A stretch of DNA of 64,000 nucleotides from Callorhinchus milii (taxonomy: Eukaryota): contig NW_024704743.1 in assembly GCF_018977255.1 (NCBI RefSeq), positions 25,980,001 to 26,044,000 on the forward strand, written 5' to 3'. The notes beneath the pieces were generated by a model that saw only the letters and a list, made by a program, of their open reading frames with translations, was not told the DNA's origin and made no database searches. This document shows positions 52,201 to 61,200 of this stretch, one piece after another. The number at the start of each line of letters is the position of its first letter. The first letter of the stretch is position 1. Both the position numbers and the translations under genes were made by a program.

Positions 52201-55200
52201 ATTTCCTGGGAGGATTCCTGAATGTTTTCCTAGGAATTCCTTACGCCTCTCCACCTGTTGGGAATCTCCGGTTCCAGGTCTGTGTCAGAGGCTACCACCT
52301 TCTTGAGTAAAGTTTTATAATACAACTCATCTACATTTTTGGCTGCCTGTCCAGAGACTTAGAGGCCACAGTCAGCATTAATAATAAATAAATAATAATC
52401 CTTGCATTTGATATAGCACATTTCATGTCAGGAGGATGTTCAGCAGCATTTTTACACACAGCAATGTCCCACAAATAGCCAAGTTTATCTGGTGGGTAGT
52501 TGAGCAGGACATCAGGAGAATCTCCCTTCACTTCATTAAAAAGATTATTAAATGTTGGTTTTCACATAGTCTTTCTATTAATATATTAAACTGAGGAACT
52601 GGACCAAATACTTGCTCAGATTCAAACCTGATTTGCCACAAAATGTCCCTTTGACAGTGGATCTATTACATGGTCAGTATTCATTCAGGATTTTATAGTC
52701 CAATCAAACTAACTGAGAATAGACTTGATGAAGGGTGTTGCTTTTTCATATTGGCTTATTATTTCTCAGCCACCAGAGGATGCCAGACCATGGGCTAGCT
52801 TGCTGGAGGCGACACAGCTAGGACCTGCCTGCCCCCAGCTTCCGAATCATTTACCTGATGGCGTTAGCCGCATGAGTGAAGACTGCTTGTACCTCAACAT
52901 CTATGCACCGGTCAGGGTAAGAACACACTTACCAGCCCCAAATTGCTTTACTCAACTGAATGATAAAATCCTAGTGCAATAGATACAAAACGATACTGCA
53001 CTCCAATTGAAAGTCTTGGAGCCTTTGTTTTGACAATTCAGTTTCGAGGAGGAGTTTCAAGAGAATTTTTCCTGCCAAATGGTGAAGAAATGTTAAAAGT
53101 GTTACAGACTGATTCGGAATTTTGTCTCGCCATTTATTAACACGTAGTTTCATTTGCTTATTGGGTTTATTTTGTTAACAGCCAGGCACCATCTCTCACC
53201 CTCTCCCAGTCATGGTTTATATTCACCCTGGTTCCCTCCAGTCAGGCGCTGCTGGGACCTATGACCTGAAGAACCTTGCAGCGTACGGACAGGTAAATGA
53301 CTCTAAACATGACATTACAGATAGAATCAAATACAAATTTCCATTAAACCTTTCAAGTTGAGAGCATATTCCAAGGCACTTAATAATAATGGCTTGGCAT
53401 CTGAGCTAAGGGTAGGAGCCGAGGGGGGAATGGGGAGGAGAAAGCTGATCAAAAGCACGATCAAAGAGGTTTAGTCTTGAGGTGGACCTTGTCATATCTT
53501 CTATGCAGACGAGAACCAAGAATTTATTCAGCATTAAAGTTCTTTCTATAAATAATCAAATATTTAAAATAGCTTTTATAGAGTCAAATTTCTACTTTTT
53601 AAATTATTTTTAGACCAGTATCTGACAAACACACACAAACGTGGAGTCCTGTAGCTCAGTGGTTAGAGCACTCGCCTTGCAAGCAAGACACCTGGGTTCA
53701 ATTCCAGGCAGGGCGAAACCTTGGGCAAGTTTCCTTATTCCACACACCTAATAATAATTCCCCCAAAAAACAAAACAATAATAAATTGGTCATTTTCAAT
53801 CCACGACTGTTTGTTGGACACTGCTGTGTGCAATTGGCTGCCGCGTTTTGCCCACAAATATACAGTCAATTAACTTTACAGTCTATTCTGTGAAGCGCTT
53901 TGAGACGTCTAGAAGATGTGAAAAGTGCTATATCAATATGCAAGGATTATTATTATTATATAACTCTGCCCTCTCCACAGTCTGGTCGATAAAAGACTTT
54001 CCCAAGCCTCGTGCTTTCTGTAAAAGTCTTTCATCGAGCTGTGGAGAGGGTATGGGTTTTACATTTTCTTGTTAGAAACTGGCCTAAAAATATTTTTAGC
54101 ATCTGAGCTTTGATGATAAGCACTGCCAGGCTATTAGATTGTGACAGGCAGCATTGCCAAATCTACTCCTGCTCTTGCCTGAGTCTAAAACAACAACAAA
54201 TTACAGATGTACGGCACTCTTCATGCCGGAAAGACGTCGCATGCGCGCTCATGTCTACTCAAGTGCACCAACCAGTACAGTCATAGACATCAAGTATATT
54301 TTAGCACACATGTCCAGTTCTTTCTTTGTATTACTTTACATGTTGAACACCTGTTTTTCTGGTAGTCTGGTACAGTCACTAAACATCTGGAAAATTCACA
54401 AGCCTTTGTCTTTGCAAGTATCAGCCTGGCTCAGTCAGTAATGCTCTCACCTCTGTGTTAGAAGTCGGAGGTTCAAGTCCCACATTGGGACTTTGAACTC
54501 ACATAGTCTCTTTAGGTTGACACTCCAGTGGAGTGCAATGCACTGAGGTCCTGTCTGCCGGTTCAGGTGGATATTGAAGATCCCCTGGCACTATTTGAAA
54601 AGAGAAGGGAGTTTCTCCCAGTGTCCTCGCCAACAATCCCAATTGATCATTCACTTCACGACTGGTTGTGGGGCCATTGCTGTATGCAAATGGACCAGTG
54701 ATGAGGCTGGAGCTGACCTTGGTGATCTTTTGACCAACGCTTATGGGATTGATCACCTTATCAAATGCTCACTTTACAGTACAATTCTGTGACTCTCTTT
54801 GCGATGTTCTCCTGATGTGAAAGGCGCAATACCAAATGCGAGGGTGATTATTATTATTTACAAAAGACAATCATAGAATCATAATATGTTTCCTTTTTAA
54901 ACCAAGTGATTTTCTTAGTGACTGTTTTGCGGGGAGAGGGGACAGACAGCAGAGAGACAGTGGGAGCAGGTCATTTTAAAAAGTATCAATTTGCTTTCAG
55001 ATTGTTGCGGTGGAATTTAGCTATCGCCTCGGTCTGTTTGGCTTTCTCAGCACACTGGATGAACATGCTCCTGGGAATGTTGGTTTCCTGGACATGACCA
55101 AGGGCCTTCAGTGGATAAAAGAGAACATCCAATACTTTGGGGGAGATCCCAACAACGTCACCTTTTTCGGTCATGGGGCTGGAGGGCTGGCTGTGAATTA

Positions 55201-58200: not shown

Positions 58201-61200
58201 ACTGGACAAACTTTGCTCACACCGGGTAGGATCATATTTTCAGTACTTTTGAGGTTTTGAAAAGATATATTGCAGTACAGTGGAAGCTGCTTCAGCCAGA
58301 CAGACGCCTGTTAACCCCAAGCGCTGGGTAAATCGGACAAAATGTCCGGTCCTGATTCATTTGTGTTCTTACCTGTTTTAATCCGGACAAAATACTGGCT
58401 GGTCATCACTGGATATGGGAGGAGTCAAACTCCAATTGATTGACAGCAGACTCCAGCCAATCACAAGCGGATCTAGGCTGTCACTCAGTGGGGGGGGGGG
58501 GTGTGGGGGGCGTGGATTACCGGGAAGAAACAAGGGAAGGAATGGAAGGAGGAGTCAAAGACAGTTGGAGCCGCTTGGGAATGGGTAGAGTCCATCCGTT
58601 CACAAGCGGCTTCAGGCTGTCAATCACCTCGGAGCTGCCGCTAATTCGCCCTCTTCCCGTCCAATGGGAATGGCAAAGGGAGGGAGATGATGCTGACGCT
58701 GCTCCTCTGCAGGGCGGGGAGAAGTGAGGGACCTCAGATGCCGCTTAAGATGGACAAAATGTCCGTCCCCGATGTGTCGTTGCTAAGCGTCTTCCACTGT
58801 ATTGTAATTTGCCCGTTTACAACTTCCTCTGTCCTGCTCATTAATCGCCGACAAAGACACCGGGGCCTTCCCCTCCATTCCTACGACTGCTAGGAATTCC
58901 GAGGACAGCCAAGGCAACTGTGCTCTTCCTATTTAGAGAGGAGCATCCCAGCCTCTGCTCAGGGCTGTCCCCAATGCTGAGGCCAAGATCAGAAACAGCC
59001 GTTGTCAACCCTCTCAGTTTGATCAGTTAGAAATTTACAGCACAGAAAAAGGCCATTTGGTCCATCGAATCTGGGGTGACTCTTTTAAGAGCTGTCTTTT
59101 CGGTGCCATTTACCTGCCCTTTCCCCATACCCCTGTAATTTACTTTTTTTCAAATATCTAGTTCCCTTTTGGAAGCTAATATGGAATCTGCCTCAACCAA
59201 TGATCCAGCCATGTCATAAGAAATCTGTGTGAAAAAAGTTCTCCTTATCTCCCCCATTTGTTCGTTTCCTCGATGCCCTCCAAGTCCCTGACTCACTGAT
59301 CAGAATTTGAAGCACATGACCTAAACTTTGCTTCTCTTTCTGAATAGTGCCCTGAGATGTTTAACATCAAACCTGAACAGAGTCCTAACCTTGCTTTGAT
59401 ATCTCATGCAAAGTAGAGAACCACCAATCATAATAATCATAATACTTGCATTTGATACAGAGTCTTATCACCTCATTGAAAGGCACTTCACGGGATATAC
59501 TATGAAGTTGATTGACTGTATTTTCCAATAGTCCTGCACTGAAGTCAACAACGTCGATAAATTTACATTTATATAGCACTTTTAACAACTGGAGGATGTC
59601 TCAATGCTTCACGGAATACAACAAGAAGATTACATTTGTATAGCTTCCAATCAAGGCTTCAATCCAGAAGTGAGAGTGCTACTAACTGAGCAAAGCTCAT
59701 AAAGCTGACAGGAGGGGGCACGGGTGGGAAGATAATTTTTCAGTATTCATTCACTCAAAAACTTTCAGGATTTGAAGATGTGTCAAATTTGTGGAGATTT
59801 GTGGAGTCCTGTAGCTCAGTGGTTGAGAGCACTCGCCTCGCAAACAAGAGCCCTGGGTTTGATTCCCAGCAGCGTGAAACCCTGGGCAAGTTTCCTTACT
59901 CCACACTCCTGATAATAATCCCTCTAGAAAATAAACACTTAAGAAATTGGTCACTTCAATCCATGACTGTTTATGAGACACTGCTGTGCGCAATTGGCTA
60001 CCACATTTCGCCCACAAATATACAGTCAATTCACTATACAGTATATTCTGTGAAGCACTTTGAGATGCCTAGAAGACGTGAAAAGCGCTATATCAAATGC
60101 AAGGATTATTTTTTATTTATCCCATTAACATTCCCAGTTCCAGTGCAAACAAACTCAATTACTTGAACCTGTTTCATAAGTATACTCCTTCATCCCTGGT
60201 ACATGTGTGGACTGACCCTACTCTTCATTCCCGTGGATCTGATGTCCTTTCACAGGCCACCCATTTTGCATACATGTGGGACAGAGCAGAGGCGGTTTGG
60301 AGTCGGGATTAGGAGGGATGTAGTATTAACACTGACACTGATTGAGCTGAATGGTCTGTGTCTGTCCTGTAACATTCTATGTGACTGTACATAATAGTAT
60401 AGGCTGCATAAGCCAAGTTGCTTTAATGACTTCCAGTATTATCTGAATTGAAATAAATGTAAAGAAAAGTTTGCCCAAGATTGACACTCCTCACAGTTCA
60501 ATGCTGAAGTCAGGGCAGTCTTGGAAACATGTTCCGTAAGGAACTACCTCAAGTTTTAAGCAGTCCGGGACACTACCCTGCGTGAAGGGCACTATATGAA
60601 GGCAAGTTGTTATTATGTTGAGACTGCTCAAAATAGTTACAAGACACTTACAGTCAACTGTGACCTCCTTCAGGTTCAGCTCCATTTTAACCTGTGAAAA
60701 GGTGGAGGTGAAAAGGACAGTGCACTCACCCACTTCAGTACCCTGGTTGCCTAAAAATGATCACCTCACCCTTTCCCTCAGCTGCTTCAAGATCTGTCTC
60801 AAGACCTTTCCCTTTGACTGTATCTTCAGTCATTTACCCACCCTCACCACCCTTAGCCCCCAACCTTCCTGAATTCAACCCCCAACTCAGGTGCAAACCC
60901 TCCAGTGCTTTTTGGCATCCTGCTGACACAAAAGGTGTTATATAAATGCAATTTGTTGGAACAGGTCGGGTATTATTTCCCCTAAAAGTAAGACTATGTG
61001 ACCTATGAATTCTGAAGGTTGTGTGAATTTTCTCTTCAAATATATTGTTGATAGATCGAGTTCCTGTCCTTATTCAATTTTTATTTTTAAACGCACTCAG
61101 CAACCCAAACAGAGGGCTCCACAGGATGCCACTTTGGCCAAGTTACACAGCCGCTGGTGCAGGATTCATGAATTTCACGGCAAACTGTTTGACGTCTGTG

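Follow-up and report, generated by a model that had tools for sequence, protein, structure and literature searches.

Has a neuroligin, or a relative of one, become part of a lipase in a cartilaginous fish? The question is raised by a locus of Callorhinchus milii, which we analyzed in a window of 64,000 nucleotides (NCBI RefSeq assembly GCF_018977255.1, contig NW_024704743.1, positions 25,980,001 to 26,044,000 of the forward strand; coordinates below count from the first letter of the window). A preliminary description of this DNA had recognized a non-catalytic, neuroligin-like domain at 53182..58225 and proposed that it derives from a neuroligin- or cholinesterase-like adhesion gene fused to a lipase, or else that it lost catalysis convergently. 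We found that this stretch corresponds to exons 14-17 of a larger gene of 18 coding exons on the + strand (23795-61587). The predicted product, of 1720 amino acids, is laid out as a type I membrane protein with a signal peptide, three carboxylesterase domains (D1, D2 and D3), a Thr-rich stalk, a transmembrane (TM) helix and a PDZ-type tail. D3, the membrane-proximal domain, is conserved and lacks the catalytic serine. Neuroligins are among its nearest relatives, though by its sequence D3 is not itself a neuroligin.

D3 lacks the catalytic nucleophile

The codons first reported for the active site were all recovered. The nucleophile codon is GGG (55175-55177), encoding Gly1279 within FGHGAGG; as had been noted, it lies at least two changes from any Ser codon (two from TCG, AGT and AGC, three from TCT, TCC and TCA). 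The oxyanion-loop proline is encoded by CCT (53227-53229, in IHPGS), while the acid (GAG, in TSDEA), the histidine (CAC, in ASHLDD) and both Cys pairs (52830/52884 and 55349/55382) are retained. The frame is intact over eight exons (exons 11-18), all joined by GT-AG introns. The limits of the domain had to be widened, as the stretch first described lies inside D3:

51153..61275, + strand: D3 (amino acids 1088-1617, exons 11-18), non-catalytic carboxylesterase/cholinesterase-fold domain; start and end approximate
53224..53235, + strand: oxyanion loop H-P-G-S of D3 (HHG in elasmobranchs)
55169..55183, + strand: nucleophile elbow GHGAG of D3, with Gly at the nucleophile in nine of nine elasmobranch species
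55556..55558, + strand: acid Glu1406 of D3 (codon read)
58098..58100, + strand: His1517 of D3 (codon read)

Exon 15 alone scores 219 bits against the COesterase family PF00135 (cut-off 27), and Pfam finds three COesterase domains in the orthologue P0490. The structure model of a D3 orthologue (mean predicted local distance difference test 86) reaches a TM-score of about 0.9 to solved family members. D3 has no Ser in the G-x-S-x-G of active serine esterases and, because this nucleophile is lacking, the predicted domain is unable to hydrolyse esters. Contigs from two public DNA runs, X1 and X2, one of which may come from the same sample as the assembly, show no other letter over the Gly codon, nor do those of X1 over the Pro codon. 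Among the 40 of 49 differences listed from sequencing runs, eight are exonic (five synonymous, three missense; one and two of these, respectively, in D3), which is too few to interpret.

The Gly is common to the nine elasmobranch species, a set that leaves aside pieces from Rhincodon and Rhinoraja; the elbow reads GHGAG in seven and GYGAG in two, and all nine retain the acid and the His. The two motifs first taken as neuroligin marks did not hold up as such. HPG is private to this genome, as all nine elasmobranchs have HHG and neuroligin-1 and neuroligin-4 have HGGS; the change lies at the first Gly position of the loop, and the following G-S is the same as in neuroligin. GHGAG is shared by unrelated domains of insects and a nemertean. 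Of 462 domains, 46 have Gly at the nucleophile position, and these are dispersed among insects, a nemertean, tunicates, a flatworm and a nematode.

A predicted three-domain membrane protein conserved in cartilaginous fishes

The gene model was built from motif scans and tblastn and is predicted from genomic DNA. It forms a single open frame with GT-AG introns throughout. For exon 16 the acceptor at 56277 was chosen, as one at 56185 did not preserve the frame, and the donor of exon 13 was set at 52916 rather than 52910 in accordance with the orthologues.

+ strand, exons 1-6 (GT-AG model): 23795-25218, 30003-30192, 31877-32159, 35753-35956, 36624-36786, 42009-42244
+ strand, exons 7-12 (GT-AG model): 42934-43110, 44197-44359, 47624-47830, 49914-50033, 51059-51201, 52186-52277
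+ strand, exons 13-18 (GT-AG model): 52770-52916, 53182-53292, 55001-55656, 56277-56462, 58052-58225, 61101-61587
23795..23851, + strand: putative signal peptide (amino acids 1-19; hydropathy window 1.73; similar orthologue N-termini)
23852..30180, + strand: D1 (amino acids 20-534), with Ser206 at 24410, Glu329 at 24779 and Asn435 at the His position, 25097
31877..51116, + strand: D2 (amino acids 539-1075), CEL/bile-salt-activated-lipase-like, with Ser735 at 36725, Asp861 at 43014 and His976 at 47709
61276..61404, + strand: Thr-rich stalk with a conserved Cys at 61354 and a juxtamembrane motif (sequence and orthologue alignment)
61405..61476, + strand: TM helix (amino acids about 1661-1684; hydropathy up to 2.04; long helix 591-633 in the orthologue structure model)
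61477..61587, + strand: cytoplasmic tail of 36 amino acids, ending QTWF-stop, a class I PDZ pattern (sequence)

The whole protein aligns over its full length with the models of Stegostoma and Mustelus at 67-69% identity, and D1, D2 and D3 are mutually only 32-37% identical. Three-domain models are present in Mustelus (1686 amino acids), Stegostoma (1679 and 1716) and Scyliorhinus torazame (1702 and 1729), and joined models that are incomplete at the 5' end in Leucoraja, Chiloscyllium and S. canicula. Identity to the elasmobranch models is 63-70% for D3 (six models), 72-73% for D1 and 69-72% for D2. As D3 comes near to D1 and D2 in this respect, it appears to be under constraint although it is dead. 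The domains of the window branch outside all shark and ray copies in a maximum-likelihood (ML) tree.

No close D3 match was found in bony vertebrates or cyclostomes: beyond shark and ray sequences, the hits share about 30-42% identity over the whole domain (one search covering 8000 candidates, another restricted to relatives at no more than 50% identity). The gene was likely lost in bony vertebrates. Two-domain CEL models of frogs and two-domain CES models of catfishes were considered as orthologues and rejected, since their domains group with CEL or CES; the frog models also contain an internal signal peptide.

A Cys follows each domain (30178, 51114 and 61273) and, like the stalk Cys at 61354, is kept in those orthologues that cover it. 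Comparable Cys residues are found in tunicate and brachiopod linkers. In AChE, chains are joined through such Cys residues and, by analogy, those after the domains and in the stalk may be candidates for inter-chain disulfides. Nearly all of D1 lies in a single exon of 1424 bases (23795-25218) that ends in NFAKT/G and resembles the large exon of this genome's cholinesterase gene, whereas D2 and D3 are split over many exons. Intron 14 contains a degenerate copy of about 60 bases (54693-54753) of the part of exon 15 that surrounds the D3 acid (55546-55606).

D3 is not a neuroligin

We examined the affinities of each domain by phylogeny. The 462 fetched proteins were split into 742 domains, 462 of which were kept after filtering for a FastTree analysis. 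Four ML trees were built on hand-picked subsets of 57-71 domains, and approximately unbiased (AU) tests were run under LG+G4 on 71 rows; thyroglobulin, gliotactin, neurotactin and glutactin are not in these trees. Neuroligins of mammals, birds, hagfish, amphioxus, a hemichordate, arthropods, molluscs and a brachiopod formed a clade without D3 (support 100/100, 100/97, 100/99 and 100/99). The AU test rejected the placement of D3 with vertebrate neuroligins (p=0.006) or with deuterostome neuroligins (p=0.015). It also rejected D3 with D1 (p=0.001) and D3 with D2 (p=0.0009), showing that D3 is not a recent duplicate of either; such a duplication would, according to the preliminary description, have refuted a neuroligin ancestry. 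D3 was retained as sister to all neuroligins (p=0.38), to the fourth domain of Styela (p=0.48) or to CES (p=0.24), and lies outside the CES clade itself (96-100 bootstrap), and the protein does not have the ER-retention end of CES.

Structural characters point the same way. The Cys loop of D3 has 17 residues, as compared with 31-38 in nine of nine neuroligins and 26-28 in CES, and the loop after NFAKTG has 8, as compared with 21 in vertebrate neuroligins. Of the seven D3 introns, the neuroligin of this genome has a single one in common, which is family-wide. The TM region on the D3 side lacks the neuroligin TM signature and is not homologous to the neuroligin TM, the tail is about 36 amino acids long against about 120 in neuroligins, and D3 is the third of three domains rather than a single ectodomain directly after the signal peptide. 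Inspection of the neurexin-binding face, which the preliminary description had called for, gave no sign of vertebrate-type binding. Of the nine vertebrate neurexin/MDGA site I residues given in the available part of PMC5563082, D3 keeps one, with Lys in place of Glu394 and IAD in place of LRE; invertebrate neuroligins keep zero to two of the nine, so this test bears on vertebrate-type binding only. On the question of a four-helix bundle, a homodimer prediction for the Pristis D3 orthologue scored 0.22 against a mark of 0.32; no alignment was used in it.

In a broader sense the affinity to neuroligins stands. D3 and the neuroligins (NLGN1-4 and invertebrate Nlg) share the COesterase fold, Gly in place of Ser, an acid and His that are often kept and 33-35% identity. 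They are alike in an O-glycosylation-type stalk, a single TM helix and a class I PDZ end, and neuroligins are the nearest named clade in most trees. The stalk-TM-PDZ layout of neuroligin is described in the available part of PMC10084454. The best phmmer match of D3 is neuroligin-1 with 144.7 bits, against 144.3 for CES. A Foldseek search with the orthologue model gave E 1e-55 for neuroligin and 3e-52 for AChE, the alignment behind the model having included neuroligins.

Invertebrate tandem esterases and the origin of D3

Models from Styela (with four domains), Saccoglossus, Glandiceps, Ptychodera, starfish, urchins and Lingula combine one or more esterase domains, the last of them mostly Ser-less, with a stalk and a TM helix. 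These tandem proteins resemble the shark protein in their juxtamembrane motif and often end in S/T-x-L/F/M. They differ from it in having two to four domains, and orthology domain by domain is partly resolved. D3, neuroligins and the last domains of hemichordates, echinoderms and a brachiopod formed a clade among the 462 domains (FastTree support 0.977). The same clade was recovered at 97/94 in a C20 mixture tree with five cnidarian enzymes (position of D3 inside it, 79/24) and, with the Styela domains included, at 68/64 under LG+G4. In a mixture tree with sparser sampling, the sister group of D3 consisted of neuroligins together with one intact enzyme of a cnidarian (85/87). Two members of otherwise Ser-less groups carry a Ser at the elbow, the last domain of Ptychodera P0295 (GFSSG) and the prawn neuroligin-like protein P0453 (GHSSG).

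From these trees, D3 is most likely an old Ser-less lineage that split off before bilaterian neuroligins diversified and is kin to neuroligins and to the dead domains of invertebrates. A single ancient loss of the Ser, common to D3 and neuroligins, is the favoured history.

We further compared the membrane anchors. In a search of 78 tails with a profile of seven chondrichthyan stalk/TM regions, four Styela tails came out on top (21.8, 19.7, 18.9 and 9.1 bits), and neuroligins scored at most 2.5. The reverse profile, trained on invertebrates, gave 14-29 bits for six shark tails. Thus the stalk, TM helix and tail, present as first described and then read as a likeness to neuroligin, resemble those of tunicate tandem esterases instead. 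A class I PDZ end (S/T-x-hydrophobic) is found in ten of ten chondrichthyan models, four of four Styela models and 7 of 15 other invertebrate models. Among neuroligins 6 of 11 have it, and the background is 27 of 345 proteins. The shark TKF/TKL ends resemble ligands of the apical NHERF/PDZK1 scaffolds more than the TRV of neuroligin.

D1 groups with first and third domains of tunicates in the four ML trees (87-92 bootstrap). Since this grouping, the tail profile and the PDZ ends tie the shark protein to tunicates, the tandem, membrane-anchored layout is probably older than the split between tunicates and vertebrates. The D1 triad is Ser-Glu-His in the five of five elasmobranch species that cover it, and the His is Asn (AAT, 25097-25099) in this genome, which may reflect a lineage-specific loss, a variant or an assembly error; if true, D2 would be the only active domain in this species. 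In tunicate-type two-domain proteins (P0125, P0133, P0267 and P0132), a CEL-like domain is followed by a D1-like domain with GQGAG, a predicted Ser-to-Gly change that is a separate loss of catalysis.

D2 has a complete CEL-type Ser-Asp-His triad, in keeping with the proposal of a fusion behind a lipase. It is sister to vertebrate CEL, not within it (92-98 bootstrap, four ML trees), with CEL-like domains of tunicates just outside. Like CEL, it has a short Cys loop, four of its eight introns at positions of the genome's own CEL, and an insert at the bile-salt loop, diverged here from GANFLxNYLY, the CEL motif given in the available part of PMC9386070. Unlike CEL, which is secreted and single-domain, D2 is internal and membrane-tethered.

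A wider scenario would join these lineages. An ancestral surface enzyme of bilaterians would have had a Ser-less module next to the membrane, and neuroligins, D3 and the dead last domains of invertebrates would all be descendants of that module. Among vertebrates only the cartilaginous fishes would still have this layout, which bony vertebrates would have lost; neuroligin would be the module released from its enzyme, and secreted vertebrate CEL would have arisen as a copy of the middle domain. We regard this scenario as speculative and, taken as a whole, rather improbable.

Proposed function and alternative readings

We consider it somewhat probable that this gene of cartilaginous fishes encodes a lipid-ester hydrolase anchored at the cell surface as a type I membrane protein, with D3 as a structural module, D3 being an old Ser-less lineage that is distinct from neuroligins and was not copied recently from D1 or D2. 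The chemistry would be done by the distal domains, D2 as a CEL-type lipase and D1, intact in sharks and rays, as a second esterase. D3 could serve as a membrane-proximal pedestal that raises the active domains off the membrane and, by analogy with thyroglobulin and lactase, would probably help folding, export or dimer formation. The PDZ tail would retain the protein at an apical epithelial surface, most plausibly in the gut.

Comparable systems are known. Lactase-phlorizin hydrolase and phospholipase B1 (PLB1), the latter with four repeats, are likewise type I membrane enzymes built of repeated homologous domains, some of them non-catalytic. Their folds are unrelated, making this an analogy only, and the non-catalytic domains of lactase are distal and cleaved, whereas here the dead domain is membrane-proximal. 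According to the available parts of the sources, brush-border multi-domain hydrolases such as lactase carry non-catalytic chaperone domains (PMC6412902), PLB1 is a membrane lipase (PMC12467236), and the cholinesterase-like domain of thyroglobulin (ChEL) is an intramolecular chaperone (PMC5943944). ChEL and insect gliotactin, neurotactin and glutactin resemble D3 in being dead cholinesterase-fold domains with structural or adhesive roles (PMC5943944, available part), in other architectures. The probable thyroglobulin piece of this genome matches D3 weakly, with E 5e-7 at best.

Several results weigh against this reading. When 24 active-site columns were removed, the clade uniting D3, neuroligins and invertebrate dead domains fell to 43/88 (68 of 150 bootstrap trees), though it was still in the best tree; of the 150 bootstrap trees, 74 then had D3 next to neuroligins and 49 had it next to CES. 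The sister of D3 varies with model and sampling, and the fourth Styela domain groups with CEL, not with D3, in two ML trees. The window's own tail scores only 2.0 bits on the invertebrate-trained profile, on which six other TM esterases reach 21.5-33.9, so the anchor is not exclusive. D3 could instead be an old offshoot of CES or of another active lineage that lost its Ser independently, its likeness to neuroligin being convergent; we judge this unlikely, though a serious contender. It draws on the AU test retaining a sister relation to CES (p=0.24), the same 49 bootstrap trees, the near tie in phmmer bits, the scattered occurrence of Gly at the nucleophile and the intact cnidarian enzyme that lies between D3 and neuroligins in one tree. 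That enzyme shifted away once four relatives were added, however, and an affinity to CES fits poorly with the best tree obtained without active-site columns and with the shorter Cys loop of D3. A fusion that placed a true neuroligin gene after a lipase gene, in either the chondrichthyan or the vertebrate lineage, would account for the top PDB matches, in sequence and fold, being neuroligins, and for some NCBI models of the gene being automatically named neuroligin-like. This derivation is already largely refuted, and we give it hardly any credence: both AU placements with neuroligins were rejected, the loops, introns and TM signature differ, neuroligins were part of the alignment behind the fold model, and the genome has neuroligin genes of its own on other contigs.

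The single transcript also stays predicted. Among the runs listed for exon 15 none was RNA, and no exon junctions were seen among the joints listed from four sequencing runs aligned to 42000-61700, which gave one contig of 158 bases on the last exon, from a run presumed to be RNA. D3 stands alone in the models of Heptranchias, Pristis and Amblyraja, and D1 is missing from those of S. canicula. Gene prediction might therefore have merged three neighbouring genes, as happens in many database models with two CES/CEL domains, the frog CEL models with their internal signal peptide being one example. We find this very unlikely, as neither D2 nor D3 has a signal peptide and neither D1 nor D2 a stop, the exons of the linkers are conserved and keep the frame, joined models occur in five species (Mustelus, Stegostoma, Scyliorhinus torazame, Leucoraja and Chiloscyllium), and the D3-only model of Pristis starts at an internal Met of the D2 end. 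A further objection concerns the role of D3, whose acid, His and much of the surface are conserved more strongly than a mere spacer would need. D3 may be a cholinesterase-like adhesion module that binds a partner in trans or in cis, making the protein a hybrid of enzyme and adhesion molecule, compatible with a lipase role of D2. Trees and fold put neuroligins nearest, the stalk-TM-PDZ layout is as in neuroligin (PMC10084454, available part) and D3 is strongly conserved. The site I residues speak against it, excluding vertebrate-type binding only, as do the two 60-kDa domains on the N-terminal face of D3, and we consider it unlikely but worth keeping in view.

Genomic context

The downstream neighbour, tail to tail with the gene, is TRIP13 (last exon 62908-63000 on the minus strand, E 2e-5). 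Upstream there is an SLC12 gene at a distance of about 220 kb, and an open reading frame beginning MGKKHKKHK, which we take to resemble BRD9, is found about 19 kb beyond the window. This neighbourhood presumably corresponds to human 5p15.33, not to a neuroligin locus. An inventory of PF00135 in the genome, whose counts are lower bounds, found at least one cholinesterase, two neuroligins, CEL, two CES-like genes, an unassigned esterase on C19 and a probable thyroglobulin piece, at loci on contigs C11, C15, C8, C14, C19 and, at 124.66 Mb, C2, on which the window also lies. The genome's own neuroligin (C11 and C15), CEL (C8), cholinesterase and CES-like genes are on contigs other than that of the window. 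LINE (long interspersed nuclear element) reverse-transcriptase fragments and many repeats like short interspersed elements (SINEs) occur at 1900-21000, at 38300-39300 and in introns, and single N positions at 14474 and 37979.

Significance

In the open-access literature we found no paper on a type I membrane protein of vertebrates that carries three cholinesterase-fold domains of which the last is dead, and the locus identifiers of the orthologues appear in no paper text there. Databases name the gene 'uncharacterized', 'carboxylesterase 5A-like' or 'neuroligin-like'. The available part of PMC10084454 lists neuroligins, gliotactin, neurotactin and glutactin as membrane proteins with dead esterase domains and names no vertebrate tandem form. 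The architecture is conserved, undescribed and assembled from known parts.

The 'neuroligin-like' labels on these shark genes are wrong. The locus points to a predicted membrane-bound lipid hydrolase of cartilaginous fishes that has no bony-vertebrate orthologue among the matches. Altogether, as a lineage adjoining both neuroligins and CEL, it is relevant to the point at which synaptic neuroligins ceased to be catalytic and to the origin of the secreted bile-salt lipase.

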